Source of the DNA: Firmicutes bacterium UBA7523
GTDB lineage: Bacteria; Bacillota; Dethiobacteria; Dethiobacterales; Dethiobacteraceae
Direction of reading: 5' to 3'
Length of the DNA stretch: 64,000 nucleotides
Assembly: GCA_002479415.1 (NCBI GenBank)
Contig: DLMZ01000047.1
Coordinates: forward strand, 2,984 to 66,983
The number at the start of each line of letters is the position of its first letter. Position 1 is the stretch's first letter. The notes beneath the pieces were generated by a model, which had not been told where the DNA came from, made no database searches, and was given only the letters and a program-made list of their open reading frames with translations. Shown here in pieces: positions 15,339-32,208 of this stretch. Made by a program: the position numbers and the translations under genes.

Positions 15339-15366
15339 ACAAACATCTATATTCCCACATATCATA
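15339..15366 (+). promoter_or_regulatory. Candidate mother-cell (sigma-E/sigma-K type) promoter of sigK
   Basis: AC (15339-15340), a 17-nt spacer, then CATATCATA (15358-15366) fits AC-N17-CATA-NNN-TA. It lies 25 nt upstream of the sigK start. Confidence 0.3.
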
Positions 15367-15390: not shown

Positions 15391-15852
15391 TTGATGCTTT
15401 TGTTTCCTGTTATTGCCGCTGTGGCGGCCATAGTAAAGGAAATTGTGCTGCTTGTATCTTACTTAAATAACAATTCTTTTCCCCAGCCCTTATCTCCCCG
15501 AGAAGAGAAGAGACACCTGGATTTAATGTTTCAGGGTGACCCCTATGCCCGCAGTATACTGATTGAGCATAATCTCCGTTTAGTTGCCCATGTAATAAAA
15601 AAGTTTGAAAATACAGGAGATGACCAGGAGGACCTCATCTCCATCGGCACAGTCGGCTTGATAAAAGCTATTGATTCTTTTAGAAACGATAAAGGTACTC
15701 GATTGGCAACCTATGCTGCCCGTTGCATTGAAAATGAAATTTTGATGCATATACGAGCCAATGCTAAACGAAAAGCAGAAGTTCTTTTGCACGACCCAAT
15801 AGGCAATGATAAGGATGGAAATGAGTTTACGCTATGTTTATATCTGTACTAG
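15391..15852 (+). CDS. sigK: Pro-sigma-K, N-terminal segment only (spoIVCB-like), interrupted by the prophage
   Basis: The pro-sequence plus regions 1.2-2.4 match sigma-K ([75 protein letters not shown]). The frame then ends after a few unrelated codons, and regions 3-4 are missing. Confidence 0.85.
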
Positions 15853-17384
15853 TCTAGCTTCGGCAGTATATCTAGCTCGAAGTCATCTCCAACTTGATGC
15901 TTTTCTTTGAGATAGACGGCACGCTCCACTACAGATTTGAGGAGCGTGTTTTTCTTTTGGATATCGGATGTGAGCGGGTATACCTTCAGTACATGCTCCA
16001 CGGTGGGGATAATGTCGAGTTGAGCCTTAGATCTCTTGATTTCCGCCAGGAGAGAGGCTTTGGCAGTCTCTATACCTACCTTGGCGTCTTCGATGCGCTC
16101 AGCGAGACTCTGTGACCTCTCAAGATATGTTTCCTCATCATATATGCCGCGCTCAAGGAAGTCATGCAGTTTTTCTTTCTGCTTTTCCAGCTCGGCCAAC
16201 TCTCGGGCTAATGATTCTTTAGCAGCTTCGCGCAACTTCACGGCATCTGTCGAAGGGGTTGGCTTCTTGTTACGCCTGCCCCACTGGGCCTTATATGTCG
16301 ATAGCCACTCCTCGAGAACAGTCAGCAGTCGCTGCTCCACAAGCTCAAATTTAGACCCTTTGTTGTTACACATGCGATTTTGGCAAATCATATGCGGTTT
16401 CTGCTTAGCGTACGGTCGGCGCACCATCATCATGCCGCACTTATCACACACGATTAGGCCAGCCAAAGGGTTAGACAATGCACCGTTAATAAAATACGGA
16501 GGGTGGGTTCTAGTTTCAAGTATTTTCTGCGCTTTTTGAAAATCTTCTTTACTGACTAATGCTTCGTGCTTGCCCTCGACTTCAATCCATTCATCCTGCG
16601 GCCTGGTCCGGGTGTCCTTGCGCTTGCCAGGCTCTTTAGATTTTTTGCATTCTTTTTTTTGCCACTGAATAACTCCGGAGTAGACTGCATTCTTGATTAC
16701 ATTCTGGACAGCAGCCTGTGACCAAGGTATACCGGTATAAGAGAGCAGACCCATCTTGTTCAGCTCATTAGCTATTTTTGCACATCCCAGATTGTCGTTG
16801 ATGTACCGTGAAAATATTAGCTTTACGACCGGCGCTTGCTCCTCGTTCGGAATTAGTGTTCTGTGACCGTCAATTTTGGCTATATCGTAGCCGTAAGGAG
16901 GACGGGGGGGCAAGTATCTCCCCTGCTCAACAGAGGCAATACGGCCACGCTGGAGCCTCCTCGTGATGAGCTTTAGCTCCCGCCGGGCCATGAAGGTTTC
17001 AAACTCTGAGTACTCTTCATCAAATTCGTCTGAAAGATCATAGGTTTTGCGCGGAGTGATTATTTTTGTTTTGGACTGCTGGAACGCTTCTAGGATGATG
17101 CCTTGTTCGCGCATACCGCCGCGGCCAAGCCTGTCCAGGTCCATACAAAGCACAGCGTCATAAGAACCGGCTTCAATCTCCTTGAGCAGCTCAAGCATCT
17201 CCGGCCGGTGAAGGATTGATTCTCCGGAGACTATCTCTTCGTAGATTTTAATTATGTTGAGATTTTTTTCTTTGGCCACTTGAAGCAGGGCGCGCTTGTG
17301 CTTCGCCAGGGTTTCGCCTTCGCCATGGGCTTCGGCTTCGATGTCTTGGCGGGATTTTCGCAGGTAGATTGCTACACGTTCCAT
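15849..17384 (-). CDS. Large serine recombinase (SpoIVCA-like integrase/excisionase)
   Basis: ATG at 17384 follows GAGGTGA. N-terminal resolvase domain ([11 protein letters not shown] with catalytic Ser, LDRLGR), recombinase domain, Cys-rich zinc ribbon (C.KCG....C.NRMC), coiled-coil C-terminus. Confidence 0.9.
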
Positions 17385-17419: not shown

Positions 17420-17448
17420 GGAAAAAGAAAAGCCTCAGTTAAGAGGCT
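17420..17448 (-). terminator. Rho-independent terminator of the lysogeny operon
   Basis: On the minus strand: AGCCTC-TTAACT-GAGGCT followed by TTTTCTTTTTCC. Confidence 0.55.
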
Positions 17449-17492: not shown

Positions 17493-17903
17493 CTATGATC
17501 TCTCAATCCCATTACATACAAACGCAAAATTTTCTTTGTATTCATCAAATTTCCTCTTATCATAAATGCCTTTGGCATTGCACGTTGGACACAAATATGT
17601 CCCTTCATCTTCGCTTATATGTACTTGTATTGTCTTGCTATTTGCATCCCAACATGCTGAGCAATACATAATACCTTCTTCGTCATCTTTTAATGTTAAA
17701 TATCCACCACTTTTATGCCTAGTGATTTTTGAAGAAATATCTCCCTTGAGCTTAAGTGTCCTGATCTCTTCTTTAAGTTGAATAATCTCGTTTTGCATCT
17801 CTAGTGCTTGTGCGCTTAAATCTATTAATTTTTTATATACATCAATATTGTCTATTTTTTGGAGAACTTGAGCAACGTCTTTTATGCCTTCATAAAGACT
17901 CAT
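17493..17903 (-). CDS. Hypothetical coiled-coil / zinc-ribbon protein
   Basis: The N-terminal half is coiled-coil-like. The C-terminal half has CSAC..19 aa..CPTC. No family recognised. Confidence 0.5.
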   Translation of the reverse strand: MSLYEGIKDVAQVLQKIDNIDVYKKLIDLSAQALEMQNEIIQLKEEIRTLKLKGDISSKITRHKSGGYLTLKDDEEGIMYCSACWDANSKTIQVHISEDEGTYLCPTCNAKGIYDKRKFDEYKENFAFVCNGIERS

Positions 17904-17932
17904 AATCACACTACCTTTCATATATTGTTTTT

Positions 17933-18018
17933 AGGAGGGAAGGGGATTCGAACCCCTGAGGCGTTTTCGCCTTACCGATTTTTAAGATCGGCGCCTTAAG
18001 CCACTCGGCCACCCCTCC
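17933..18018 (-). tRNA. tRNA-Leu (anticodon UAA), class II with long variable arm
   Basis: Hand-folded cloverleaf: acceptor GGAGGGG/TCCCTCC, D arm GCC-GAGTGGCTTAA-GGC, anticodon stem CCGAT/ATCGG with loop CTTAAAA, variable stem GGCG/CGCC, T arm AGGGG-TTCGAAT-CCCCT. No encoded CCA. Confidence 0.9.
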
Positions 18019-18236
18019 CCAAACTCGAAACCAAATGTAATGCCAACCAAAACATGCCCCAGTCAACATCGCCCCAATCACAATCAGCCCCACCGCTATA
18101 GCAGTAATCTCCCATAGCGACTTGAGCAGCTCAATTGCCCAGGCGGAAACGCTGACCCGGTAAAAGAATAGGGTTATGCCAGATATTAAAATAGAGAGGG
18201 AGAAAAGTAGGTGGTGGTCATTTAGTCAGTCCTTGT

Positions 18237-18593
18237 TTAGCTAGCCGAGGGCTCAGATTTCTTAGAAAGCTCTTTTTGTCCTGCCATAGCAAAAATGCCG
18301 CCTAGCAATAGAAGAATAAATGCAATTAAGTATGCAGCAGAGATCATGATTAATCCAACAATCGAGCTGAAAATCATAAGTATCCCGGCAAGCTTTGGTT
18401 TAGCAATTGCCAATGCGCCACCTACTAGCCCTATTAACGCAACAGGGATGGAAACTAATCCAAGATTAGTAACAGTTGTTGCACCTTCAGCTTGTAAAGC
18501 TTCCCCAATTCCACCAAACGCTGTTGCCGCTAATCCTCCAAAAATTCCTGCGATACCGCCAATTATACCAAGAATTAAAGCTGCTATTCTCAT
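18237..18593 (-). CDS. Small glycine-rich multi-pass membrane protein
   Basis: Start moved to MRIAALILG.. with RBS AAAGGGG. About 118 aa, four predicted hydrophobic segments. Confidence 0.6.
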   Translation of the reverse strand: MRIAALILGIIGGIAGIFGGLAATAFGGIGEALQAEGATTVTNLGLVSIPVALIGLVGGALAIAKPKLAGILMIFSSIVGLIMISAAYLIAFILLLLGGIFAMAGQKELSKKSEPSAS

Positions 18594-18627
18594 TTTTACC
18601 CCTTTCTTTATTCCGCAGTAGTTTGTT

Positions 18628-19158
18628 TTAATTAATATCGTCAACTGCGACAGTATAAATTGCCTGTCCAAAACCGAATACGCTAGGCTCAAAAATAAAC
18701 TCCCATTCCGTTTCATCGGCATCCACTTCAAATGCTACTTCTCCTGCCATTTTGCGCCCAGCAGCAAGTTCACCATCTAAACTCCCTTTTGCGCTTGTTG
18801 AAATAGTTAAGCTTTGAGAGTAGCTGTCTGAATCGTACAGCTTAAACATAAGCATGCTTGAGATTCCTTCAGACTCACTGCCTGTATTTTCTAGCGTGCA
18901 GTCAAACAGTAGCCAAGATTTACCTTCGTCCGGCGTCCAGAAGTCGTCTCCTTCGTCAAAGCGCACTCCATTAAGAGTGAATTGCAAACTGCCCATTTTT
19001 ATAGTTTCGCCAATATTAAAGGTTTCTTGAGTATTGCCTTTGGGTTTCTCGTTTTGGTTGTTAGCATTAACTCTTTCTGGTTTTGTTGTTTCTCCGCATC
19101 CCACAACAGCTAAAGCTAATACTAATGACAGCACCAACAAAAATATAATTTTTTTCAC
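18628..19158 (-). CDS. Lipoprotein, DUF4352-like
   Basis: GTG start follows GGAGGGG. Signal peptide with lipobox (LAVVGC). The mature part resembles the DUF4352 beta-sandwich pattern (..F.LNGV......W.....K.L..D..L.N.G...). Confidence 0.7.
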   Translation of the reverse strand: MKKIIFLLVLSLVLALAVVGCGETTKPERVNANNQNEKPKGNTQETFNIGETIKMGSLQFTLNGVRFDEGDDFWTPDEGKSWLLFDCTLENTGSESEGISSMLMFKLYDSDSYSQSLTISTSAKGSLDGELAAGRKMAGEVAFEVDADETEWEFIFEPSVFGFGQAIYTVAVDDIN

Positions 19159-19258
19159 AAGTTCCCCTCCAAAAAGGTTATTTGTATGTAAACCTGTCAT
19201 TTTTCTATTGACAGGGGAATAGAGAAAAGTAAAAACATTGTAGTTATTTGTCGAAACC

Positions 19259-19771
19259 TCATTCAAGCACAAAACCCGCCTCATCATTGGCGGGTTTTAT
19301 TTCTTGGTGTCGAAATTTAAAGTTTTCAATTATCCCTAACGGGTCAAAGCAAATCCAGTATTTATCTACACGGCAGTAGATGCCGTGTTTTATTATGTAG
19401 TGCTGAAGAGCGGCAGTTAAAAAATGCTCTGTTATATTAAGATGCTCTGCAAGTTCATGCTGAGTCCTAATTCCGGTCTTATAAGCAAGAATTAGCTTGT
19501 CCAGTGGTACGAGTCGCCGGTAGCTCCATGCACGCGCAAGGTGTTCTTGTTTTCGATTAGAAATTATAGTTTGGTCAAGTATGTTTCCGACTGTCATATG
19601 GTAATGTCCAAGCTCCTCGGCCATGATACAGGCTTTCTCGGCAGCACTATCTATGTTACTGTTAATGGCTATTATTTGGTTGCTATAAATGCCTTTTAAT
19701 TTGCCATTGAAAGGGCGGGATATTACCTCAATCCGTTCTTCAGCAGCTTCATGGAGTAAGGTTTCGTACAT
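19259..19771 (-). CDS. ImmA/IrrE-family (DUF955) metallopeptidase-like protein
   Basis: Position beside the XRE repressor, size, and an ..AEELGHYH.. motif at the place of the HExxH zinc site. Confidence 0.75.
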   Translation of the reverse strand: MYETLLHEAAEERIEVISRPFNGKLKGIYSNQIIAINSNIDSAAEKACIMAEELGHYHMTVGNILDQTIISNRKQEHLARAWSYRRLVPLDKLILAYKTGIRTQHELAEHLNITEHFLTAALQHYIIKHGIYCRVDKYWICFDPLGIIENFKFRHQEIKPANDEAGFVLE

Positions 19772-19794
19772 GTAAGCTCCTCGCTAATTATTCA

Positions 19795-20064
19795 TTATTT
19801 CTTTGCAATTGTAATGTCTTTTCTTATTGCATATATCTCTTTTTCTGCCTGACTGCCTTTATGCATTAAGAAGTCAACAGTGTTTGAGATGTCGTTCAAT
19901 TTGTTGTTTGTTTCCGTGCGGAATTCGGTTAGCATAGCTGTTTGGTCATATACGGAGTTAAGCTTTTTTTCAATACGTTCTTGCCCTTCAGTTAGACGTT
20001 CTTGCCCTTCAACCAGAGACTTTAACTGTTGAAGCACTAGTTCTTGAAATTTTTCATTGTCCAC
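19795..20064 (-). CDS. Hypothetical coiled-coil protein
   Basis: 89 aa with an internal tandem EGQER(L/I) repeat. Sits between the repressor and the ImmA-like gene. Confidence 0.5.
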   Translation of the reverse strand: MDNEKFQELVLQQLKSLVEGQERLTEGQERIEKKLNSVYDQTAMLTEFRTETNNKLNDISNTVDFLMHKGSQAEKEIYAIRKDITIAKK

Positions 20065-20091
20065 TTACTCACGCTCCTTTATATAGTGCAA

Positions 20092-20424
20092 TTATTCTTT
20101 GCCTTCCCTTTGCTGCCGCCGCATCCGGACAAACTCCTTAAACTGCTCTATGTCTTGCAGTTCCTCATCTGTCCATTCGTTACCGTCGTGATGGGCGGCT
20201 ATGGTGTCGTGCGGAGTGCGAATGTTTGTGCGGCCGAGAAGATAGTCGATGCTGACATTAAAATAATCTGCTAGCTTACTTTTTATATCATCGTTTGGCG
20301 TACTTTTTCCGCTTTCATACAGAGAAACCGCAAATTTTGTAACACCAACTATGACTCCAAGCTCCTCTTGAGTCATATCTCTTTCTGTTCGTAACAATCT
20401 AATTCTTGCTCCCAAGTCAGACAC
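20092..20424 (-). CDS. XRE-family repressor (CI-like)
   Basis: HTH_3 pattern: R...R....MTQEELG...GV....VS.YE.G...P. Divergent from the cro-like gene. Confidence 0.85.
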   Translation of the reverse strand: MSDLGARIRLLRTERDMTQEELGVIVGVTKFAVSLYESGKSTPNDDIKSKLADYFNVSIDYLLGRTNIRTPHDTIAAHHDGNEWTDEELQDIEQFKEFVRMRRQQREGKE

Positions 20425-20464: not shown

Positions 20465-20493
20465 ATTATAAATGCAGGGAAAATATATGTAAA
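20465..20493 (-). promoter_or_regulatory. Candidate repressor-operon promoter
   Basis: On the minus strand: TTTACA, a 17-nt spacer, then TATAAT. Confidence 0.5.
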
Positions 20494-20522
20494 CAAAGTT
20501 TAAGAAACTTCAATATTTATGC

Positions 20523-20551
20523 TTGACAGTTGAAGAAATATAAACTATTAT
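20523..20551 (+). promoter_or_regulatory. Candidate early rightward promoter
   Basis: TTGACA (20523-20528), a 17-nt spacer, then TATTAT (20546-20551). The spacer itself is an operator copy. Confidence 0.6.
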
Positions 20552-20593
20552 AGTATTAAAGTTGAAGCAACTTAAACATGAGGGGGTGTTGAT

Positions 20594-20845
20594 GTGAAGC
20601 ATTTAAGATTAATTCTGGCAAGAAAAGCCAAAGGTTTTACTCAGGAGGAGATGGCGAAACTTCTTGGGTATAAAGATAAAAGCGGTTATTGTCAGCTAGA
20701 AAACGGCCAAGTAAGCATGACGCTGGAGAAGGCTAGCCGAATTTGCGAAATTTTAGGCGTTCAAATAGAGGAGATTTTTTTTAACAAAACGGTTGAAGAA
20801 GCTTCAACACGCTCTGGGCGTGACTTACCCAAAACCGGCACATAG
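20594..20845 (+). CDS. XRE-family Cro-like regulator
   Basis: GTG start follows GAGGGGGTG. HTH_3 pattern: R...G.TQEEMA..LG......Y...E.G. Confidence 0.8.
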   Translation: MKHLRLILARKAKGFTQEEMAKLLGYKDKSGYCQLENGQVSMTLEKASRICEILGVQIEEIFFNKTVEEASTRSGRDLPKTGT

Positions 20846-20860
20846 AAAGGATGTGAGAAG

Positions 20861-21043
20861 ATGGGTGGACTGCACTCGTTGAAAATCAGCCAAAAAGAAA
20901 ACAATCTAGACGGCTGCCGAATAGAATTAGACGGTTTTGTTCTTAAGGGCATATCCGAATATACAGTTAGCGCCGCTGCTCTCGGGGGAATTGAACTGAC
21001 TCTTAAGTTAACGGTTAAAGATTTAGAACTGCTTGTTGATTAA
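20861..21043 (+). CDS. Hypothetical protein
   Basis: ORF with RBS-like AAGGATG upstream. No family recognised. Confidence 0.4.
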   Translation: MGGLHSLKISQKENNLDGCRIELDGFVLKGISEYTVSAAALGGIELTLKLTVKDLELLVD

Positions 21044-21400
21044 CGCCGTAACCACGCTTACTGCAATCTGTGAGAGTGCCTGCAATGAGAAAGAGCCAAC
21101 ATTCTGTGCAATTTCCTTTGTTCTACTCCAGTTATTATCGCTTCGAATATTAGCCAAAAACTCATGGCCCTGTGGAGACAGATCGTGGATTAGACATCCA
21201 CCATCAAAAAACCAATCTACTTTTGTTAGGAGCACTGATAACTGACATTGTTTTATGTGATACAAAACGGTTTCAACTGGGTATTTTTCAAGATTACTGT
21301 AATTTTGATCTTCCTCAGGATATCTCATAAAAGTACCAAAACCAGTTTTTCCCTCAACAGTAAGCAAAATGTCTCTAATGCAATCCGGATTCAATCTCAT
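21023..21400 (-). CDS. DUF2513-like winged-helix protein
   Basis: M.LN.D.IRDILL..E..... and ..Y....YH...L.......... pattern typical of DUF2513. Opposite strand to the early operon. Confidence 0.55.
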   Translation of the reverse strand: MRLNPDCIRDILLTVEGKTGFGTFMRYPEEDQNYSNLEKYPVETVLYHIKQCQLSVLLTKVDWFFDGGCLIHDLSPQGHEFLANIRSDNNWSRTKEIAQNVGSFSLQALSQIAVSVVTALINKQF

Positions 21401-21505
21401 AAAAAACACCCTTTCAATGGTAGTGTCTGGACAACTTTACCATATCACGGGAGATAAGAAAGGGGCAAGACCAAAACCAACACAGCGTAAAGGATGTGAA
21501 GAACA

Positions 21506-21697
21506 GTGACAGAGAGCAAAATTGTCTATCAAGCAGAGGAGGACAACGAAGAATCCTCAATAACGTTTAGGGAGCTTATTATAGATCAAATTCTTCTTTT
21601 AACTGACTGGAATGTAACAAACATCAAAAGAGACCCTGAACAGGTCAGAAAAAATATTGAAACTATCCTAATTCTTAGAGAACATTTTATGGTGTAA
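21506..21697 (+). CDS. Hypothetical protein
   Basis: ORF only. Confidence 0.4.
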   Translation: MTESKIVYQAEEDNEESSITFRELIIDQILLLTDWNVTNIKRDPEQVRKNIETILILREHFMV

Positions 21698-21705
21698 GGC
21701 CGACC

Positions 21706-21912
21706 TTATATGATTGTACCGCCCTTTGATTTGGAGGCAGGGTTGTTCTTTTCAAGGCTGTCTATCATCATAAAAAGTGTCTCGTATGTCCTTGCAACCT
21801 CACTTGCAAGTGACTGATTAGATTCAGTCGGGGTTTCGTGGCACTCAGCTGTCAGCCTATCAATTATTGCTATCGTCAACTCTTTGGCAATCTCAAACTT
21901 GTTAACCAACAT
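21706..21912 (-). CDS. Hypothetical protein (reverse-oriented)
   Basis: ORF only, 68 aa. Confidence 0.4.
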   Translation of the reverse strand: MLVNKFEIAKELTIAIIDRLTAECHETPTESNQSLASEVARTYETLFMMIDSLEKNNPASKSKGGTII

Positions 21913-21994
21913 ATCACATCCTTAGTGACCTGTTCAGGGCTAGCTTATAAGTTCGTCAATTGCCAGAAAAATCCTGTGAAAGGAGTGAGAAAAC

Positions 21995-22243
21995 ATGGTT
22001 GTCCCTGCCACCTCCCCGCATATCAATGTACGGGGTGAGCGTATGAACCATATGGGCAAAGTAGCAGAGCTTCTGCAGCGTCCCAGGCACTACGCCATGG
22101 TGCGTAAAGTCGGGAACTCAACCGTGAGGATTATCCAGCCGGCGCCAATTACGGATGCGGAGCGGGAGCGCATCCTGGATGCCTTCTATGTTGCCGGCTG
22201 GGCAATCGTGGAGGAGGTGGTCGAGCGGGGGGAGAGCGTTTAG
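21995..22243 (+). CDS. Hypothetical protein
   Basis: ATG follows a strong RBS, AAAGGAGTG. Confidence 0.5.
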   Translation: MVVPATSPHINVRGERMNHMGKVAELLQRPRHYAMVRKVGNSTVRIIQPAPITDAERERILDAFYVAGWAIVEEVVERGESV

Positions 22244-22354
22244 TTCTCTCTTGGGAGAGTAGGGGACGGGCCTTACAATATAACTTTACAGCAATGATAA
22301 GTCACATACAATCCCTGCAGTGTTACCCATCATTTAACGAAAGGGGGTGCTGAT

Positions 22355-22909
22355 GTGAGAGAAGTGATTAAAGCTGCACGAAAAAGAGCCGGGCTGACTC
22401 AGCAAGAGGTTGCAAACCAATTACATATCACTAGAGAGTTTTATAACCAAATTGAAAACGAAGCAATAGAGCCTGATTTTTCTTGGGCTGAGCGATACGG
22501 TCGCTTGGCGGAAATTATCAACGAGGATAACTTGACGATGGTTGTCTGCGCTAAGAAGTGCTTCATCGGGCAGAAATATTGCTATACGCTATTAAACAAT
22601 GTTGATTTATCGCCCATGGCAGCCTTAGCAAAAATGGAATCAAAAGACCGACAGTTTGACCAGGCCTGGAATCAGCTACGGGATTTGATGCTCAACAAGC
22701 GAACGGTTTCTGACTTCAACGCTGAGGAATTACTGGCCGTAGAAGAGTGTTTTTCTGTACTGCTAGATATGGAGCATATCATTGAGACAACAAAGCAGAT
22801 TGCCACAATGATGGGTTTTAGGGTTTCTAGGTGGGTGGCTGACCACAACCAGAAGATGGTTAGAAAGAAGTATGTGGATCCAAAGAAGCCGGAGCTGCAA
22901 ATTGCTTAA
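22355..22909 (+). CDS. XRE-family HTH protein with uncharacterised C-terminal domain
   Basis: N-terminal AR.RAGLTQQEVA..L.I....Y..IE HTH_3 pattern. RBS AAAGGGGGTG. Confidence 0.7.
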   Translation: MREVIKAARKRAGLTQQEVANQLHITREFYNQIENEAIEPDFSWAERYGRLAEIINEDNLTMVVCAKKCFIGQKYCYTLLNNVDLSPMAALAKMESKDRQFDQAWNQLRDLMLNKRTVSDFNAEELLAVEECFSVLLDMEHIIETTKQIATMMGFRVSRWVADHNQKMVRKKYVDPKKPELQIA

Positions 22910-22922
22910 AGGAGAGGATTAT

Positions 22923-23078
22923 ATGGTTAGCTGGACATGTCCACACTGTGCAAAGTCAATGCATTCGTCTTGGGACTGCAGGGACAAGGAAAAGGTGCAA
23001 TGTATTCACTGTGACTGCTGGCTTGTGAATCCTTATTTCAAAGAAGAGAAAGGAGCGGGTGGTGATGGAAAGGCATAG
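22923..23078 (+). CDS. Small zinc-ribbon protein
   Basis: ATG follows AAAGGAGAGG. CPHC..18 aa..CIHCDC. Confidence 0.5.
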   Translation: MVSWTCPHCAKSMHSSWDCRDKEKVQCIHCDCWLVNPYFKEEKGAGGDGKA

Positions 23079-23274
23079 CTTCGATGTAACTGCAACATAC
23101 AAAAAAGCAATAGCGATGTTGACATCGGATGAATGCATCCACGAAGACTCTTTCACCTATGCTGGTATTTGCGGAACAATTATGAGCGCTCTTACAGAGG
23201 AAGAAAGGCAACAAATCGCCGAGAGAATTGAGGAGAGGCTAAAAATCTTAGAAAGATTGGAGGCGAGAAAATGA
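23059..23274 (+). CDS. Hypothetical protein
   Basis: ORF in a tightly packed operon. Confidence 0.45.
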   Translation: MVMERHSFDVTATYKKAIAMLTSDECIHEDSFTYAGICGTIMSALTEEERQQIAERIEERLKILERLEARK

Positions 23275-23426
23275 GGGGAGTTTTGCTGAGCTACGTTGGC
23301 ACCGTCCGCGGACTAAGAAGCTTCCTGGCGGCCGCGATGTATCCGGAAAAGATTGTGAGCTTAGACGTTCGCAGGCAAAAGAAAAAAGCCACTCCTGCCA
23401 GAGTGACCTTGAAGCCCATTGCGTAG
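23271..23426 (+). CDS. Small ORF (51 aa), absent from the supplied track
   Basis: ATGA start/stop overlap with the preceding ORF. GGAGG lies 7 nt upstream. Basic C-terminus. Confidence 0.4.
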   Translation: MRGVLLSYVGTVRGLRSFLAAAMYPEKIVSLDVRRQKKKATPARVTLKPIA

Positions 23427-23428
23427 GC

Positions 23429-24079
23429 TTGACTGTCTTTATTGTAGCACAACTCAAACCGAAATTTCAAGGGGTGAAGAAATTGCAAGAAATAACAATT
23501 GGGCTGTCGGAACGACAGGTACACTTTTTGAAGATGTTTGCAGCTAATCATTATCCAGGAGCTAAGGATAATCTGGCTACAAATAAACCTATACACGTTG
23601 TCCAAACAAGAAGAGAAAGAGTCGTTGATTCCAGCTACGATTCACCAGATGCTACAAAGTATTATTTGCGCTCGGACTGCACGGCCTACGATTCGGCAAA
23701 AGAATTGATAAGCGGTTACTATGAGCGCGGTTACGATGAAGAGTGCCCAATAGAAATCGTTTCTTTTAAAGAAGCATATGCACAAGATGAATTCACGGAT
23801 ATAAACGGTGAAGGACAAGTCTTGATGAACGAAGAGGAATATTTTGAGGCTTATGGCTTAACAAAGGATATGTACTCCAAGGTTAACATTGAGTACTACT
23901 ACGAGCCTGTCGCCTACTTCTTCATCTTAGAAGAGGCCAGACGCTATATCGAGTATCAGCGACACAACCTTTGCAACCCTCGAACTTACACGTACAGTTG
24001 CGGCTTTGCAAACCACGGGGAGTACGAGCACTTTTGGGACCTGCTTTTCAGTATAGGGAAGATGCTGAATGAGGGTTGA
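23429..24079 (+). CDS. Hypothetical protein (start uncertain, possibly about 23483)
   Basis: Long ORF. An AAGGGGTG RBS-like element lies upstream of an internal TTG. No family recognised. Confidence 0.5.
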   Translation: MTVFIVAQLKPKFQGVKKLQEITIGLSERQVHFLKMFAANHYPGAKDNLATNKPIHVVQTRRERVVDSSYDSPDATKYYLRSDCTAYDSAKELISGYYERGYDEECPIEIVSFKEAYAQDEFTDINGEGQVLMNEEEYFEAYGLTKDMYSKVNIEYYYEPVAYFFILEEARRYIEYQRHNLCNPRTYTYSCGFANHGEYEHFWDLLFSIGKMLNEG

Positions 24080-24215
24080 TTTATCAGCTGCGCCCGTTCC
24101 TATAGGTGGGGCAGGTTGCGGGCTAGCGAGGGCGGGGCGGCTGATTGATAAAAGATGAGGCGGGAAAGCGCCGAACGGCAAACCCCGCCCCCAAAGATCC
24201 AAAGGAGGAATAAAT

Positions 24216-26207
24216 GTGAAGCTAGTAACCCTTAAACTGCGAAACTTTATGGGAATCAAAAATTTCGAGCTTGATGCCAAGGGTAGTAATGTATCAATTT
24301 ATGGAGCCAACGGAGCGGGGAAAACAACTTTGTTTTCAGCTTTTTTATGGCTGCTGTTTAATAAGGACGCGACGAATCGGACAGACTTTGATATCAAAAC
24401 ATTGGACAAAGAGGGTCAGGTTATTCACGGCCTTGAGCACCAAGTGGAAGCTGTTTTGGAAATTGGCGGCAAAGAATTGGCGCTCTGCAAAATTTACAAA
24501 GAGCAGTGGACCAGAAAACGTGGGAGCGTATCACGAGAATTTACTGGTCATACTACCGATCACTTTATTGATGGTGTACCGGTGCCTAAGAAAGATTTCA
24601 CCGCAAGAATCTCAGAGATAAGTGCCGAGGATGTTTTCAAACTACTCACTAACCCAACATACTTTAATACTCAGTTGCACTGGCAGGAACGCAGGAAGAT
24701 CCTCCTTGAGATATGCGGAGACATTACTGATGCCGAAGTGATTGCCTCGGAAAAAGCGCTTTCCAAACTTCCGGATATCCTGAACGGCCGTAAGTTGGAT
24801 GACCACCGGAAGGTGATCAATGAGCGTCGCAAGGCTGTCAACGATAAGTTGGAGAAAATTCCGGTCCGTATTGATGAAACTGAACGTGGTTTGCCAGACA
24901 TCAGCAACATCCAGGTAGACAAGCTTCCGGAAGACATTGCAAAGCTCCGTGCAAAGGTGAGGGAGAAGAATCAGGAGATTCTTCGTATTGAGGGCGGTGG
25001 AGAAAGCGCCGAAAAGACTAAGCAGTTGAGAACGATTGAAGGAGAGATTCTAAGGCTCAGAAATGAGCGCCAGCAAAGGCTGGATGCGTTAGCAGGCAAA
25101 AAGAGAGAAGATCTCCGTTTGGTTAAAGGCGCTGTTCTTGACCTAAAAGGTGAAATCGGCACACTTACGCGTACAATAAGCAGCTATGAGAACGATATTG
25201 CGACTTACACTACCAAGATGGAGCAGCTGAGACAGGATTGGCATAACGAAAACGAACGTAAGTTTAATTTTGAGCAGGAAGAAATCTGTCCTACATGCGG
25301 TCAAGACCTTCCTCATGAGCAGCTACAGGATGCTAGGGAAAAAGCTTTAGCGACTTTCAATAAGCATAAAGCGGATAAGCTGGAGACTATTAATGCAGAC
25401 GGGCAGAAGCTGAAAGCTTTAAAAAACAAAATGGAAATCGAGCTTAACAAAGCTCAAGCTAATATGCAAAAGGCTACTGCAGATATAGAGCAACTTCAGA
25501 AGAAAGAGGCTTCACTGCTGACTGAAGCAGACGCTATTCTGCAGGGAGCAAAAACAGTTGAGGAATCAACACTTTATGCTAGTTTGTTAGAACAGAAAGC
25601 ATCCTTAGAGGAGGAAATAAAAGAGCTGGAAGTAGGAAATTGCGACAGCATAACTTCAGTTCGTGAGGGTATTTACGTATTGGAGAATGCCATAGCAGCT
25701 CTTGAGAGTGCAACTGCTCAGGTAGACAGCCATAAGAGAGGCTTAGAGCGCATTAAAGAGCTTAAGCAGGAAGAGAAAAAGCTGGCAGCTGAGTATGAGC
25801 AACTAGAGAACGAGCTTTATCTCACAGAACAGTTTATCTGCGCTAAAGTGAGTCTGCTTGAAGAAAAAATCAACAGCAAGTTTGAATTGGCTAGGTTTAA
25901 ATTGTTTAATGTGTTGGTCAATGGTGCTGTGGAAGAGTGCTGCGAGACCATATACAACGGGGTGCCGTACTCCAGTGGACTTAACAACGCAGCGCGGATT
26001 AATGTAGGCCTGGACATTATTAATACACTGGCTGACCACTACAGCATTGATGCGCCTATCTTCGTAGATAATGCCGAGGCCGTTACGGAACTAATTGAAA
26101 CTCGTGGCCAACAGATCCGGCTTGTAGTCAGCGCGGATGACAAAAAATTAAGGGTGGAAGTGGCGGAAGTGCCACAGACACTCTTTAGTGAAAGAGAGGC
26201 TGTTTAA
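24216..26207 (+). CDS. SMC/Rad50/SbcC-like AAA ATPase with coiled coil and CxxC zinc hook
   Basis: N-terminal Walker A GANGAGKTT, a roughly 400-aa coiled-coil region with a central CPTCGQ, and a C-terminal signature/Walker B region (..IFVDNAE..). Confidence 0.8.
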   Translation: MKLVTLKLRNFMGIKNFELDAKGSNVSIYGANGAGKTTLFSAFLWLLFNKDATNRTDFDIKTLDKEGQVIHGLEHQVEAVLEIGGKELALCKIYKEQWTRKRGSVSREFTGHTTDHFIDGVPVPKKDFTARISEISAEDVFKLLTNPTYFNTQLHWQERRKILLEICGDITDAEVIASEKALSKLPDILNGRKLDDHRKVINERRKAVNDKLEKIPVRIDETERGLPDISNIQVDKLPEDIAKLRAKVREKNQEILRIEGGGESAEKTKQLRTIEGEILRLRNERQQRLDALAGKKREDLRLVKGAVLDLKGEIGTLTRTISSYENDIATYTTKMEQLRQDWHNENERKFNFEQEEICPTCGQDLPHEQLQDAREKALATFNKHKADKLETINADGQKLKALKNKMEIELNKAQANMQKATADIEQLQKKEASLLTEADAILQGAKTVEESTLYASLLEQKASLEEEIKELEVGNCDSITSVREGIYVLENAIAALESATAQVDSHKRGLERIKELKQEEKKLAAEYEQLENELYLTEQFICAKVSLLEEKINSKFELARFKLFNVLVNGAVEECCETIYNGVPYSSGLNNAARINVGLDIINTLADHYSIDAPIFVDNAEAVTELIETRGQQIRLVVSADDKKLRVEVAEVPQTLFSEREAV

Positions 26208-26984
26208 ATGACAAATGCACTGGCAACAACATCATCAGTTAAAAAACTAAGGGCTATTATCAACACAGAGAGCGTGAAGGAGCAGTTCAGAAATGCTCTT
26301 GCAGAAAATGCCCCGCTTTTTATTGCCTCACTAATTGACGTGTACGGCAACGACAAGTATTTGCAGAAATGTGAGCCTCAGTTAGTGATTATGGAAGCGC
26401 TGAAGGCCGCTACTCTAAAGCTGCCTATCAACAAAAACCTGGGATTTGCTTATATTGTTCCGTACAAGGACGAGCCTCAGTTTCAGATTGGATATAAAGG
26501 CTATATCCAGCTCGCAATGCGTACCGGGCAGTATAAGTATATAAACGCTGATGTGGTGTACGAAGGGGAGCTAAAAGGACATAACAAACTGACCGGCGAG
26601 GTTGACCTAAGCGGCGATGCAGCTTCTGATAAAATTATCGGATATTTTGCCTACATCGAAACTATTAACGGCTTTAAAAAACCGCTTTATTGGACCAAAG
26701 AAAAAGTGACGGAACACGCAAAGAGATATTCAAAATCCTATAATTCAAACAATTCTGCATGGAAAACCAATTTCGACGAAATGGCGTTAAAGACAATGAT
26801 ACGAAACCTGCTCAGCAAATACGGTGTAATGTCTGTTGAGCTTATGAACGCATTTAGCGCAGATACAGGGGACGAGCGTTCATACGAGGCCCAGGCTGAG
26901 GACGAGATAAGCAGCAACGCAAACGGCGAAGTGATTGATGTTGACGTCACGGTCGAGAGCAAAAATGAAGGGCCGGGATTTTAA
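26208..26984 (+). CDS. recT: RecT-family single-strand annealing protein
   Basis: RecT pattern (..P....A.......L.LP.N.....AYIVPY......FQIGYKG...LA.R.G). Confidence 0.85.
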   Translation: MTNALATTSSVKKLRAIINTESVKEQFRNALAENAPLFIASLIDVYGNDKYLQKCEPQLVIMEALKAATLKLPINKNLGFAYIVPYKDEPQFQIGYKGYIQLAMRTGQYKYINADVVYEGELKGHNKLTGEVDLSGDAASDKIIGYFAYIETINGFKKPLYWTKEKVTEHAKRYSKSYNSNNSAWKTNFDEMALKTMIRNLLSKYGVMSVELMNAFSADTGDERSYEAQAEDEISSNANGEVIDVDVTVESKNEGPGF

Positions 26985-26997
26985 GTAGACCAAAGAG

Positions 26998-27023
26998 CCG
27001 GGGCGGTCGCGCGACCGCCCCGG
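26998..27023. repeat. 26-bp perfect GC-rich palindrome between recT and the MBL gene
   Basis: CCGGGGCGGTCGCGCGACCGCCCCGG, with no downstream T tract. Confidence 0.8.
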
Positions 27024-27027
27024 CAGA

Positions 27028-27747
27028 ATGGAGTGCAGCATGGAATTCGTGGCTTACGCAAGTAGCTCTAAGGGAAATCTATACACTCTCTCAGATGGGC
27101 AAGAAAGAATACTCATTGAGTGTGGCTTGCCGATCAGAGAGGTCAAGAAGCTGCTTGGGTTTAGTTTGTCGGGGATATCCTTCTGTCTGCTGAGCCACGG
27201 CCATTCTGATCACTCAAAAGCTGCTGCGGACATTATGAGGGCTGGGGTAGATATTTACACGTCGCAGGGCACAATCGACGCCCTGAAGCTACATAGCCAC
27301 CGCGCACATGTAATCCGGGCAGGGAAACAGTTTGCATCTGGAAATTGGATTGTACTGCCGATAGAGGCGCAACATGATGCCCCGGAGGCGCTGGCTTTTC
27401 TGGTTTACAATAAAACCACTCGCAAACGGATGTTATTCGCAACAGACACGTATTATCTGAAAAACGCATTTGCTGGGCTCGACATTATTGCGGTTGAGTG
27501 CAATTACGCCGCTGACATCCTTCAATCTAACGTAGAATCCGGAGCTGTACCGGCCGCAATGAAGAACAGGCTCCTAAAGTCTCACTTCAGCCTTGAAAAT
27601 GTGAAGAAATTTTTAAAAGCCAACGACTTGAATAAAGTGCAGGAGATTTGGCTGGTACACTTGTCCGACGGCAACAGCGATGCAGAACGGTTCAAGCGCG
27701 AAATCCAAGAACTAACTGGCAAGCCAACATATATCGCGGGGGTATAA
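27028..27747 (+). CDS. MBL-fold metallo-hydrolase (probable recombination exonuclease partner)
   Basis: SSSKGN, LLSHGHSDH (HxHxDH) and later H/D motifs. Adjacent to recT. Confidence 0.8.
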   Translation: MECSMEFVAYASSSKGNLYTLSDGQERILIECGLPIREVKKLLGFSLSGISFCLLSHGHSDHSKAAADIMRAGVDIYTSQGTIDALKLHSHRAHVIRAGKQFASGNWIVLPIEAQHDAPEALAFLVYNKTTRKRMLFATDTYYLKNAFAGLDIIAVECNYAADILQSNVESGAVPAAMKNRLLKSHFSLENVKKFLKANDLNKVQEIWLVHLSDGNSDAERFKREIQELTGKPTYIAGV

Positions 27748-27749
27748 CT

Positions 27750-28409
27750 ATGAAATTTGCTGCTGAAATCGAAAAAGTGGAATCGCTAAAAAAACACTTC
27801 AAGGTCGTCATTTATGCGGACAAGGAAGCAAACAGGCGGTTCCTTTCGCAAATAGACGGTTTTATAGACAAACCAGTAAAGGTTGAAGTTCTCGTAGATG
27901 AAGATAGGCAAAAAGAAATTTTGGATATGATTAGCGAGGAGCAGCGGCGCAAAACATACGCTATACTGCGAGACATCAGCAACCACATAGGCGATGTAAT
28001 AGAGAGTACAAAGCTTGAAATGAAGCATCAATTCGCGGCAGCAGGTGGCCCGGAAAGTTTTTCTCTCAGCGACTGCTCACGTGAGGTGGCCCGTGAATTC
28101 ATAACTTTCTTGATAAAGTTTTGTTTCGAGTACGGAGTTCCGATGTCTGAGCATCCGAAGTCAGCATTTGACGACCCGGAAACATACGCCCGGATATGCC
28201 TAGAAACAAACACATGTTGCATCTGCGGCAAGCGCGGAGAGGTTCATCACTGCACCGGCTCGCGCATCGGAATGGGACGTAACCGCAACAAGGTTGACGA
28301 TACAGGCAAGCTCAAAATATGCCTTTGTCGTGAGCATCATAGCGAAATGCACAACGGAGCGGAAGAAGATTTCTTTATGAAATATCATGTAGTGCCGGCG
28401 GTAGTTTAA
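27750..28409 (+). CDS. Phage protein with C-terminal Cys/His nuclease-like zinc motif (DUF968/HNH-like)
   Basis: ATG at 27750. C-terminal CCICGKRGEVHHC......N.....CREHHSEMH. Confidence 0.5.
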   Translation: MKFAAEIEKVESLKKHFKVVIYADKEANRRFLSQIDGFIDKPVKVEVLVDEDRQKEILDMISEEQRRKTYAILRDISNHIGDVIESTKLEMKHQFAAAGGPESFSLSDCSREVAREFITFLIKFCFEYGVPMSEHPKSAFDDPETYARICLETNTCCICGKRGEVHHCTGSRIGMGRNRNKVDDTGKLKICLCREHHSEMHNGAEEDFFMKYHVVPAVV

Positions 28410-28432
28410 ATGTGGGGGTGGAGATAGTGACA

Positions 28433-28744
28433 ATGAATTGGGGAGCGAAGTCGCACAGCAATATAAAAAAATGGCCTCGTTGGGTCTGGGCAATACTTCT
28501 CCTAGTTTATTTATACGCATTGCTATCTATGATTATGCGTCCCTCAAGTGCATTTCAGGAACCAGAGTACATTGTGCACATTGTTCAGCCGGGAGATACG
28601 CTTTGGTCGGTTGCTAAAGAGCGACAGGAAGAGGCTGGTTTCAGTGGCGATATTCGATCTCTTGTGTGGGAGATTCAAGAGGCATCAGAAACAACGGCAT
28701 TGATACTACCGGGAGATATTTTGCTGATACCGGTTGTGAAATAG
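28433..28744 (+). CDS. Membrane-anchored LysM-domain protein
   Basis: ATG follows GGGGGTGGAG. TM helix, then the LysM pattern Y.V..GDTLWS.A............L.PGD.L.IP. Confidence 0.7.
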   Translation: MNWGAKSHSNIKKWPRWVWAILLLVYLYALLSMIMRPSSAFQEPEYIVHIVQPGDTLWSVAKERQEEAGFSGDIRSLVWEIQEASETTALILPGDILLIPVVK

Positions 28745-28764
28745 GCTCGAAAGGGGATGTACGC

Positions 28765-29109
28765 ATGCAAGCGGTTAACGTGATTCGTGAAGAGATGGAA
28801 CAAAACAAAACCAATAGTTATGTTCAGGCGGTGGGGGACTTCCTGCTGAAACACCTGGCGGCAAATCCGGGGGATGCGGAGAAGATTTCGGCTGAAAAAA
28901 CGCTTATCAGTAGCATGGATGCTCTGCGGAAGGAAGCAGAGAAGAAAAAGACAGGGAATTTTTACGCTATGCCACCGGATGAAGGCTTTAAGATTATCCT
29001 AGAGTATTTCGGCATCACCGATGCCCAGGTAAACGTGCAGATACCTGCGGCTCCGGAGAAGAAGGCATTGGACTTTGATGTGAAACTGGATGATCTGCTG
29101 AGGGGGTAG
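28765..29109 (+). CDS. PcfK-like protein (tentative)
   Basis: ATG follows AAAGGGGA. Size and layout resemble PcfK-like proteins that accompany PcfJ. Assignment is from memory only. Confidence 0.4.
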   Translation: MQAVNVIREEMEQNKTNSYVQAVGDFLLKHLAANPGDAEKISAEKTLISSMDALRKEAEKKKTGNFYAMPPDEGFKIILEYFGITDAQVNVQIPAAPEKKALDFDVKLDDLLRG

Positions 29110-29114
29110 GCGCT

Positions 29115-31747: not shown

Positions 31748-31784
31748 TTTAACTAACCGAAGAAAACTAAGGTGGTGAGTTTGT

Positions 31785-32207
31785 TTGAAAGCTATCAGTA
31801 TACTTCAACCGTGGGCATCACTGATTTCCGTGGGTGCTAAAGAGATAGAAACCCGGAGCTGGGCAACCAATTGTTTGGCAATACACGCAAGCAAGCGATA
31901 CCCAAAGGATCTACAAGAACTAGCAAAACAGGAACAGTTCTATTCCGCGCTACGTCCAGATGGCAACTATCAGTACCCGGAATTACACTTAGGCTGTATT
32001 ATCGCAGTCTGTCAGCTGGTGGACTGTCAGCGGATTAATTCAGACGAACTCCCGCCTGAACCGGAAGCATCCTTTGGAGACTACACGCCTGGGCGCTACG
32101 CCTGGTTACTGACGGATGTGAAGAGAATAACACCAGTGGCAGTAAAAGGGCAACTCGGTTTGTGGAATTGGGAGCCGCCGGAAATGCATACACAAGGTAT
32201 TGGTTAG
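31785..32207 (+). CDS. ASCH-domain protein
   Basis: MKAISI.QPWA.LI..G.K..ETR.W pattern. TTG start follows GGTGGTGAG. Confidence 0.7.
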   Translation: MKAISILQPWASLISVGAKEIETRSWATNCLAIHASKRYPKDLQELAKQEQFYSALRPDGNYQYPELHLGCIIAVCQLVDCQRINSDELPPEPEASFGDYTPGRYAWLLTDVKRITPVAVKGQLGLWNWEPPEMHTQGIG

Positions 32208-32208
32208 C

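Follow-up and report, generated by a model that had tools for sequence, protein, structure and literature searches.

A probable sigK-intervening temperate siphophage in an uncultured member of the Dethiobacteria

Introduction

[quoted passage not shown] 2012, PMC3442830). PhiS63, which is inducible, and the element in the window, the latter being the whole 64-kb stretch of DNA that was analysed, are alike in that a temperate siphophage lies in sigK and its precise excision restores or, in our case, is predicted to restore the gene. The two integrases are 48% identical over their full length, and both are encoded opposite to sigK. However, the host of PhiS63 belongs to the Clostridia and that of the window element to the Dethiobacteria; the genomes measure 33.6 kb and 53.8 kb, respectively, and are unrelated in gene content outside the integrase. 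The core shared by attL and attR is 10 nt long in PhiS63 and 5 nt long here, and only the window phage has a DGR, two inteins and a tRNA.

In C. tetani, the sigK prophages of site A are phiCT9441A, phiCT19406A and phiCT453A (skin-Ct; PMC5553647). Their integrase is 48.5% identical to ours, and their attL carries TTCATT at the same position in sigK. In the lysogeny module, upstream of the integrase, they share with the window an ImmA-like peptidase and an 89-aa protein, arranged in the same order, and in phiCT9441A the homologues of both occupy the same position. In contrast to the siphovirus-like window element, the C. tetani elements are myovirus-like, with Xkd tail genes, and the hosts are distant.

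In Bacillus subtilis, skin, a phage-derived element of about 48 kb that carries SpoIVCA and Skr, separates the 5' part of sigK from the 3' part (PMC4191935, PMC6957869). Like the window element, skin has a large serine recombinase (LSR) at the junction that converges on the 5' part of sigK, a 5-bp core with inverted repeats, and a sigK that is, or here would be, rebuilt. However, skin is defective, whereas the window element has all phage modules and apparently forms an attP junction in nature; the reported position of skin in sigK is other than the site of PhiS63 and skin-Ct (PMC3442830). In the window element, a Skr-type ORF over the 5' end of the integrase gene is not conserved.

SPbeta, with SprA and SprB, is likewise an active prophage in a mother-cell sporulation gene (PMC4191935, PMC5499854; 9dxh, 9dxd). 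SprA is the best match to our integrase among solved structures. Because SprA is used in both induction and sporulation (PMC4191935), SPbeta is the model for one LSR acting in both induction and developmental excision. Its target is spsM rather than sigK, and our PDB searches returned no SprB-like factor. Two further recent cases of infectious or excisable elements in sigK, each with a SpoIVCA-family recombinase by the junction, are the Alicyclobacillus phage MMB025 (PMC13141910) and a 22-kb insertion in B. cereus bv. anthracis (PMC10745906). Unlike the window element, MMB025 is a myovirus of 105 kb whose core, TCTC, has 4 nt and lies elsewhere in the gene, and the B. cereus bv. anthracis element is small and no complete phage.

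The concept is therefore unchanged by the present locus, since active sigK phages (PhiS63 in 2012, MMB025 in 2026) and dual-use integrases (SPbeta in 2014) were already described; what is new is that the phage-in-sigK arrangement now extends to the class Dethiobacteria. This class includes alkaliphilic, subsurface and hydrocarbon-associated anaerobes. We propose, with a probability of roughly 0.75, that sigK of an uncultured member of the Dethiobacteria is interrupted by a 53,776-bp temperate siphophage, which was integrated by its own LSR and whose excision rebuilds the gene.

Results and Discussion

Two halves of sigK flank a prophage with a full set of modules

From profile position 5 to 146 of 235, the NCBIfam SigK models match the ORF at 15391-15852 (+) with E 6e-71, and Pfam places a Sigma70_r2 domain in it. 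Past the residues DKDGNE the ORF continues into eight foreign, phage-derived codons (FTLCLYLY) and stops at 15850-15852. When B. subtilis SigK was used as the tblastn query, residues 1-146 were the only SigK stretch in the 64-kb window, and regions 3-4 were matched nowhere within it. Thus, what the preliminary description had read here, i.e., an N-terminal pro-sigma-K ORF that ends early after a few unrelated codons, the lack of regions 3 and 4, a convergent 511-aa LSR at the junction and phage modules from lysogeny switch to tail behind it, was borne out throughout (Table 1).

It had also suggested looking for the missing segment at the far end of the prophage and joining the halves in silico, and both steps gave the anticipated result. 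The public metagenome contig that contains the window also has the 3' segment, 53,776 bp farther downstream and outside the window; that is, two sigK halves in one orientation flank the inserted element and share its 5-bp core. The 3' half is an ORF of 106 aa with a Sigma70_r4 domain. Joining at the shared AATGA yields a full-length, uninterrupted SigK of 238 aa, in frame, which is 90% identical to intact orthologues from metagenome-assembled genomes and 82% identical to that of Dethiobacter alkaliphilus. The alignment runs across the junction without a gap and retains the invariant G143-N144-E145.

Table 1. Features of the interrupted sigK locus and of the prophage (window positions unless marked L003).
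Feature	Position	Strand	Basis
Mother-cell-type promoter-like motif, AC - 17 nt - CATATCATA, 5' of sigK	15339..15366	+	Pattern match only
sigK 5' segment, pro-sequence and regions 1.2-2.4, residues 1-145	15391..15824	+	NCBIfam SigK, Sigma70_r2, alignment
attL core AATGA, Asn-Glu codons of invariant Gly-Asn-Glu	15820..15824	.	Same 5 nt at attR
P' half-site of attL, inner 7 nt GTTTACG and 15-nt arm CTATGTTTATATCTG	15825..15846	.	Arm repeat
Large serine recombinase (integrase), 511 aa	15849..17384	-	Pfam, SprA alignment, integrase identities
Terminator-like hairpin between 142-aa gene and recombinase gene	17431..17448	-	
142-aa coiled-coil/zinc-ribbon protein, directly upstream of recombinase	17493..17921	-	No Pfam or PDB match
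tRNA-Leu(UAA), prophage-encoded	17932..18019	-	ARAGORN
Lysogeny module	18237..20424	-	Pfam
Divergent sigma-70-like promoters, lysis/lysogeny switch	20465..20551	.	11/12 matches per strand
Early, replication and modification module	20552..41600	+	
Terminase small subunit	41651..42604	+	Pfam Terminase_2, phrog_2606
Terminase large subunit (TerL) as three ORFs	42601..44975	+	Terminase_3/3C and Intein_splicing matches
TerL N-extein and intein-N	42601-44106	+	
Free-standing HNH endonuclease in TerL locus	44084-44803	+	
Intein-C and C-extein of TerL	44682-44975	+	
Morphogenesis module	45002..64000	+	
attR core AATGA	L003 18087-18091	.	Same 5 nt as attL
sigK 3' half	L003 18092-18374 = window-equivalent 69601-69883	Same orientation as 5' half	

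The lysogeny module encodes an HTH repressor (20092-20424), the 89-aa protein, the ImmA/IrrE-like M78 peptidase, a DUF4352 lipoprotein and a DUF4064 membrane protein. In the early module we found a Cro-like HTH protein, an AAA_23 ATPase, RecT, a metallo-beta-lactamase, HNH nucleases, and PcfJ-like and DUF3102 proteins, as well as a PAPS-reductase-like protein, a DNA methyltransferase, DnaD- and DnaC-like loaders and a MazZ-like dNTP diphosphohydrolase. The head genes comprise an SPP1-type portal, a minor capsid protein with an in-frame intein, a scaffold, the major capsid protein (51203-52264) and connectors, and the tail genes a tail terminator, major tail protein, a 912-aa tape measure and distal tail and fibre proteins. 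Beyond the window follow lysis genes, the DGR and attR. Modules for lysogeny, replication, packaging, head, tail and lysis are thus all present.

The recombinase and its attachment sites

The recombinase consists of Pfam Resolvase (residues 7-160 of the 514-aa ORF), Recombinase and Zn_ribbon_recom domains. This is the build of LSRs, in which an N-terminal catalytic resolvase domain with the nucleophilic serine precedes a recombinase domain and a zinc ribbon with a coiled-coil insert. Its stop codon at 15849-15851 overlaps that of the sigK fragment and is 24 nt from the attL core. The protein aligns end-to-end with the structure of SPbeta SprA/YokA (9dxh; residues 4-495, E 5e-46), with its YLRKSRQD motif and Ser11 (511-aa numbering) placed on the same motif in SprA; the residue equivalent to Ser11 in CD1231, S10, is essential (PMC5025042). 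Over 100% of the query, it is 57.2% identical to the integrase of Thermoanaerobacterium THSA-485A, 48.5% to that of phiCT9441A and 48.0% to that of PhiS63. The related LSRs, at 48-57% identity, include some encoded beside a truncated sigK in Petroclostridium and Anaeromonas. The recombinase thus belongs to a clade of sigK-targeting integrases and has the same target site. The 142-aa protein encoded upstream gave no match in Pfam or PDB, and no homologue was found beside the related recombinases.

The AATGA core, which in the window element is at nt 430-434 of sigK, is shared with PhiS63, phiCT9441A, THSA-485A, L053 and L054; when these six loci were compared, each had TCATT just beyond the stop of the integrase gene. 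For PhiS63, the published core is GTAATGAAAT, placed at nt 427 of the gene (PMC3442830), and includes this AATGA. The arm CTATGTTTATATCTG of attL and the P arm of attR form a perfect inverted repeat. In the reconstructed attP, these perfect 15-nt inverted arms enclose a 16-nt spacer centred on GA, the inner 7 nt being partly symmetric; the inner arms of attR, AGGGTTA/TAACCCT, have the same GA at their centre. GA is thus the dyad centre of both the reconstructed attP and the attR inverted repeat, and the crossover dinucleotide is predicted to be GA at 15823-15824. The attP sites of LSRs are about 50 bp long and imperfectly dyad-symmetric, and the dinucleotide at their centre is non-palindromic; the layout reconstructed here is of this architecture.

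In the mechanism that we propose, strand exchange at the central GA of the core, in the Gly-Asn-Glu codons of sigK, would have integrated the phage and produced attL and attR. To initiate excision, the LSR would synapse attL with attR, assisted by a recombination directionality factor of the phage. The LSR would then cut both sites at GA, rotate its subunits and religate the ends, to give a circular phage with attP and a chromosome with intact sigK.

Signs of an excised form in a natural sample

In the Logan assembly of SRR5325122, the phage is a contig of 53,781 bp that starts exactly at 15820 and ends exactly with the AATGA of attR; the stretches that were read contain 0 mismatches. Its overlap with the host contig is exactly 30 nt, i.e., k-1. 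Contigs are expected to break in this way only where two alternative sequences, attL and attP, adjoin the P' arm on its left and two likewise adjoin the P arm on its right. The data thus indicate, indirectly, that an attP-type junction exists alongside attL in the sample, and therefore that the element is excision-competent. Together with the full module set, this agrees with the view of the preliminary description that the element looks like a functional temperate siphovirus. Exact break points of de Bruijn contigs can therefore expose an excised prophage even where the reads are not at hand, and the method is reusable. The predicted attP had no exact match in IMG/VR or the JGI metagenomes, nor did the predicted attB in the JGI metagenomes.

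Directionality factor and sporulation signals

Recombination directionality factors under sporulation control are known in Skr, CD1234 and SprB. In the C. difficile skin element, the LSR is constitutive, and a directionality factor controlled by sigma-E and SpoIIID sets the time of excision (PMC5025042). No such factor was found among the candidates in the prophage, which were an ORF overlapping the integrase gene, a 47-aa gene and small neighbours of the att sites. The overlapping ORF, a Skr-like candidate of 68 aa (17248-17454, -; 137-nt overlap with the integrase 5' end), recurs in none of five related loci and was set aside as a chance ORF. The 47-aa basic protein, whose gene near attR is positioned like sprB in SPbeta, was discarded because an 80% identical homologue occurs in a tyrosine-integrase prophage, i.e., it is not LSR-specific. 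SprB/YotN-like proteins were sought by PDB sequence searches with three small proteins encoded near the att sites, which returned no relevant match.

The sigma-E/sigma-K promoter consensus was used for a pattern scan of 71.5 kb, which gave no convincing promoter of this type before the recombinase gene or any small prophage gene. The motif 25 nt upstream of the sigK start is one of only three matches in this sequence. Another sigma-K-type match near attR (window-equivalent 69155-69182) has no convincing ORF downstream, and the sigma-E-like pattern has two matches, both inside genes. The sequence CATAGATTA lies 113 nt upstream of the integrase start and is followed by a terminator.

Developmental switch, ordinary prophage or relic

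By analogy, excision may be coupled to sporulation, and one recombinase may serve both phage induction and development. The models for this analogy are B. subtilis skin and SPbeta, C. difficile skin and the site-A prophages of C. tetani. Alternatively, the element might be an ordinary temperate phage that uses sigK merely as its attB and is excised only lytically or spontaneously, with no developmental wiring. Lysogens would then be sporulation-defective, or would sporulate only once cured. The assembly graph of SRR5325122 has an attP-type but no attB-type branch, which fits phage replication better than equimolar developmental excision, and so suggests replicating or free phage DNA rather than excision in mother cells. 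The results of the searches for a sporulation-type promoter and a directionality factor in the element point the same way, and the sporulation phenotype of PhiS63 was never determined (PMC3442830). However, all sigK insertions examined experimentally in sporulating strains excised during sporulation (PMC4191935, PMC5025042, PMC10745906); these are B. subtilis skin, C. difficile skin and the B. cereus bv. anthracis element. Likewise, C. tetani strains with homologous sigK prophages at site A sporulate readily (PMC5553647), and the LSR clade hits the same site across several classes of Bacillota, which argues that the insertion is tolerated and hence that sporulation must remain possible. We therefore consider the ordinary-phage explanation unlikely.

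Much less probable still is that the locus is a dead-end relic, with this sigK permanently inactive and the organism either non-sporulating or equipped with a second intact sigK elsewhere. In D. alkaliphilus, intact sigK directly follows genes for YceG, a U32 peptidase and a PBP, and because the window locus has these genes too, it is the ancestral locus of sigK. The six closest intact SigK proteins (86-90%) have another context (Crp - toxin/antitoxin - sigK - MFS), so that a second locus in the genome is conceivable, and the genome is a metagenome bin absent from the GTDB representatives. However, the origin of five of these six proteins, all but P0006 (87%), was traced, in each case to another sample. 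Moreover, both sigK halves are intact and equally and strongly conserved: dN relative to the orthologues is equally low for the two, and the promoterless 3' half shows no decay. The recombinase and both att sites are also intact, the 15-nt arms being perfect, and the graph evidence speaks for an element that is mobile in a natural sample. That a host contig was falsely joined to a phage contig at a short repeat is hardly credible, even for a metagenome assembly and a shared core of just 5 nt, because the attL junction is identical in ENA k127_44504 and Logan SRR5325122_155, two independent assemblies from different assemblers, and is thus not an artefact, the sigK halves join exactly in frame, and related integrases have the same insertion site.

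For the sigK-intervening phage, a broader reading has about an even chance of being right: an active DGR- and intein-bearing siphophage in the Dethiobacteria would double as a developmental sigma-K switch, and one integrase clade would have kept its 5-bp AATGA target in the Gly-Asn-Glu codons of sigK. The clade would in that case be spread over the Clostridia, Thermoanaerobacterales and Dethiobacteria, i.e., over three or more classes or orders of Bacillota. This would imply an ancient arrangement between phage and host, re-used repeatedly, with the integrase acting in lytic induction as well as in sporulation. That one integrase clade recognises the same few bases in the sigK genes of spore formers so distant from one another is also of practical value, as the conserved target helps to predict att sites and to mine orthogonal serine integrases with known attB/attP pairs.

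A probable split intein in the terminase

The preliminary description had called the large terminase intein-broken, which is probably wrong. Its splicing blocks (CITGDT, TEDHLVLT and ...GLIIHN before CIDAARY) are all intact in translation, and the two intein halves that keep them surround a free-standing HNH gene. The layout looks like that of a "fractured gene" with a split intein around such a gene, and a functional terminase would depend on putative trans-splicing.

Sequence analysis of the interrupted sigK gene

The preliminary description reported an N-terminal pro-sigma-K segment at 15391, a convergent large serine recombinase and phage modules beyond it, and no sigma regions 3 and 4; profile searches bear out this picture. 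Two SigK models of NCBIfam match the ORF, one along its profile positions 5-146 of 235 (E 6e-71), the other along 4-144 of 227 (E 6e-69), with scores far above that of SigE. Past the break, the sigK frame runs through 8 unrelated codons (FTLCLYLY) to a stop. When the whole window was searched by tblastn with B. subtilis SigK, residues 1-146 matched 15397-15834 and nothing beyond residue 146 matched anywhere; thus, the window lacks regions 3 and 4. The segment retains a mother-cell-type promoter motif (AC-17-CATATCATA, pattern match at 15339-15366), one of three such matches in the 71.5 kb scanned. The recombinase (integrase) gene is convergent with the sigK fragment and overlaps its stop codon. 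Lysogeny through tail genes were identified downstream.

The exact recombinase protein is also encoded on k127_44504, a 74,511-bp contig deposited in ENA from a hydrocarbon metagenome. This contig is identical to the window and runs 7.5 kb past its end. There, at the far prophage end, the sought 3′ segment of sigK was found, as a 106-aa ORF carrying Sigma70_r4 beyond the gene-poor stretch. The two junctions, attL and attR, have AATGA in common, with a core-to-core distance of 53,776 bp, and their phage-side arms form a perfect 15-nt inverted repeat. Joining the halves in silico at this core, as the preliminary description had proposed, yields a 717-nt ORF encoding a 238-aa SigK, 90% identical to intact 231-aa SigK proteins from metagenome bins and 82% to that of Dethiobacter alkaliphilus. 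The joined protein aligns gap-free over the junction, with the invariant G143-N144-E145 contributed by the 5′ side and T147 by the 3′ side. For both halves dN is equally low (0.07-0.13 versus four orthologues, with dS saturated).

Serine-integrase attP sites are typically imperfect palindromes of ~46 bp around a non-palindromic central dinucleotide. The dyad of the reconstructed attP is centred on the GA of AATGA, and so are the inner arms of attR, AGGGTTA/TAACCCT. From this symmetry, we infer that GA would be the central dinucleotide of the att sites.

Features of the element and its junctions (coordinates refer to the window; L003, the stretch of k127_44504 that extends past the window end)
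Feature	Position	Strand	Description
Pro-sigma-K N-terminal ORF	15391-15852	+	NCBIfam SigK models, Pfam Sigma70_r2
attL	core 15820-15824		GGAAATGAGTTTACGCTATGTTTATATCTG
Recombinase, 511 aa	15849-17384	-	Resolvase, Recombinase, Zn_ribbon_recom
tRNA-Leu(UAA), prophage-encoded	17932-18019	-	between lysogeny genes and 142-aa gene upstream of integrase
Lysogeny operon		-	HTH repressor, ImmA-like peptidase, lipoprotein, membrane protein, tRNA-Leu
Divergent promoters	20465-20551		sigma-70-like
Early, replication, packaging, head, tail genes	after divergent promoters	+	
TerL ORF 1	42601-44106		N-extein and intein-N; Terminase_3, Terminase_3C, intein block A (CITGDT), block B (TEDHLVLT), then stop
TerL ORF 2	44084-44803		HNH endonuclease, free-standing, other frame, own ribosome-binding site
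TerL ORF 3	44682-44975		intein-C and C-extein; ends ...VYNMEVADHHNFAVNGGLIIHN, then CIDAARYALEDE
Lysis genes	beyond window, after tail genes		XhlA, holin, amidase
Order after tail genes	k127_44504		lysis genes, DGR, gene-poor 1.1 kb, 106-aa ORF, HAD phosphatase, shikimate dehydrogenase
Diversity-generating retroelement (DGR)	L003 14503-16850 (window-equivalent 66012-68359)		past window end
DGR variable repeat	L003 15731-15841		in 450-aa target protein
DGR template repeat	L003 15924-16034		
RT-18 RNA (Rfam)	L003 16070-16140		42.8 bits, over gathering score
DGR reverse-transcriptase ORF	L003 16173-16850		RVT_1 profile positions 64-204 only
Gene-poor stretch, 1.1 kb	L003 17000-18050 (window-equivalent 68509-69559)		adjoins attR
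attR	core L003 18087-18091		CAGATATAAACATAGGGTTAATGAAGTAACCCTG
attP, reconstructed			CAGATATAAACATAG-GGTTAATGAGTTTACG-CTATGTTTATATCTG

Relatives of the integrase and their target

Among solved structures, the best match of the integrase is SPbeta SprA (YokA; residues 4-495 aligned, E 5e-46). The closest integrases among phage records, all aligned at full length, are those of Thermoanaerobacterium phage THSA-485A (57% identity), C. tetani phiCT9441A/19406A/C2A/453A (48.5%) and C. perfringens PhiS63 (48%). A search with the joined SigK returned two genomes in which the sigK match ends at residues 149-160 with a convergent integrase directly after, namely Petroclostridium sp. X23 (NZ_CP124862.1; integrase 57% identical) and Anaeromonas gelatinilytica (53.5%). 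In both, sigK is cut at the same AATGA, which makes them probable additional sigK-intervening elements. Just past the integrase stop, 6/6 loci compared have TCATT (complement of AATGA), and in the chromosomal ones this region runs on into the sigK Gly-Asn codons. For PhiS63, a core of GTAATGAAAT at sigK nt 427 has been published and precise excision demonstrated (PMC3442830); the core here starts at nt 430. In C. tetani, site-A prophages are always in sigK, and carrier strains sporulate (PMC5553647). The integrase relatives and the common TCATT/AATGA target therefore place the element, by sequence, in a clade of phages already recognised as targeting sigK.

Break points in a second assembly

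Three informative break points occur in another, independently made assembly (Logan SRR5325122, with identical contigs in two runs). Contig _31 (53,781 bp) begins on the opening A of the core, at 15820, and shows 0 mismatches to the window over 11,565 bp. On the right it finishes with ...CAGATATAAACATAGGGTTAATGA, reaching the final base of the core at attR; its length is the core-to-core distance inclusive (53,776 + 5). Host contig _155 crosses attL and ends at 15849, exactly 30 nt (k-1, k = 31) into contig _31. A de Bruijn graph breaks in this way when two different k-mers precede the one that starts at 15820 and two different k-mers follow the one that ends at the attR core. Compared with attL, the predicted attP has a different base at 15819 (T versus A), and compared with attR, a different base immediately past the core (G versus A); such a junction explains both contig _31 break points to the base. 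If a second host allele had caused them, more common bases past the core would be expected at attR. Contig _155 is unbroken at 15824, where an attB branch (rejoined sigK) would cut it; the graph thus shows attP, not attB. This suggests that phage DNA exceeds emptied chromosomes, i.e., replication or virions, a reading that hinges on the thresholds with which the assembler cleans its graph. Exact searches gave no match to the predicted attP in IMG/VR or JGI metagenomes, nor to the predicted attB in JGI metagenomes. Contig _155 (12432-15849) is just 3,418 bp long and breaks again ~3.4 kb upstream of attL, strain variation being one possible cause.

Complete or infectious sigK phages are already known, namely PhiS63 (2012), the C. 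tetani phages (2017) and Alicyclobacillus MMB025 (2026; PMC13141910), as are smaller excisable insertions in B. subtilis (skin), C. difficile (skin) and B. cereus bv. anthracis (PMC10745906). To these, the element adds a new host class, evidence for a common AATGA target across distant Bacillota, and in-silico evidence of excision in nature.

Control of excision and context of sigK

That one serine integrase can serve both induction and development is established for SPbeta, whose sprB has two promoters, one for stress and one for sporulation (PMC4191935). In C. difficile, integrase CD1231 is constitutive, and excision is confined to the mother cell by a directionality factor of 72 aa that sigma-E and SpoIIID control (PMC5025042); Skr of the B. 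subtilis skin (64 aa) is encoded by a gene overlapping the start of spoIVCA (PMC6957869). By analogy, we infer that excision here would be coupled to sporulation. No directionality-factor gene like that of C. difficile, Skr or sprB was identified in the element.

In D. alkaliphilus, intact sigK directly follows YceG - U32 peptidase - PBP, the same genes that precede the split sigK here. In contrast, the closest intact SigK proteins (86-90%; relatives' loci L004, L005, L006, L008, L068) are not encoded after the PBP gene but in the order Crp - toxin/antitoxin - sigK - MFS, with a Crp-family regulator and a toxin-antitoxin pair on one side of sigK and an MFS or ferritin gene on the other. Either the gene moved in that lineage or two loci exist; a second sigK copy could thus be present elsewhere in the genome. 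The UBA7523 genome is absent from the GTDB representative set, and the five proteins looked up among the closest SigK matches all derive from other samples.

Terminase and accessory genes

The large terminase, previously described as "intein-broken", is probably a natural split intein, because all splicing blocks are intact in the translation of its three ORFs; the third ends, at …GLIIHN|CIDAARYALEDE, with the C-terminal blocks of the intein, then the +1 Cys and the C-extein of the terminase. The layout is that of a 'fractured gene', in which a free-standing homing endonuclease accompanies a split intein (PMC2677866), and is compatible with a functional protein made by predicted trans-splicing. 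A second intein of the element, contiguous and in frame (~residues 281-587), lies within a minor capsid protein 2 homologue (46489-48663), which also has a C-terminal DUF6883 domain.

Accessory nucleic-acid genes at 33187-36549 and 40675-41097 include a PAPS-reductase/PP-loop protein, a MazZ-like dATP/dGTP diphosphohydrolase N-domain protein and a DNA methyltransferase of 505 aa, for which the PHROG matches split around residues 150-347; a free-standing HNH gene lies at 34610-35047. Together, these genes hint at a module for DNA modification. None of the ORFs scanned was PurZ-like.

Between the variable and template repeats of the DGR, 20/21 mismatches fall at template adenines. Its reverse transcriptase may be N-terminally truncated, given the limited RVT_1 match. 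The gene-poor stretch adjoining attR contains strong sigma-70-like promoters, TTGACA-17-TATTAT (L003 17303) and TTGACA-17-TAAAAT (L003 17831), each followed within ~100 nt by a terminator-like hairpin. These units may be small RNAs; an Rfam scan of L003 17000-18050 found no family reaching threshold. The same stretch includes a sigma-K-like promoter motif at L003 17646-17673.
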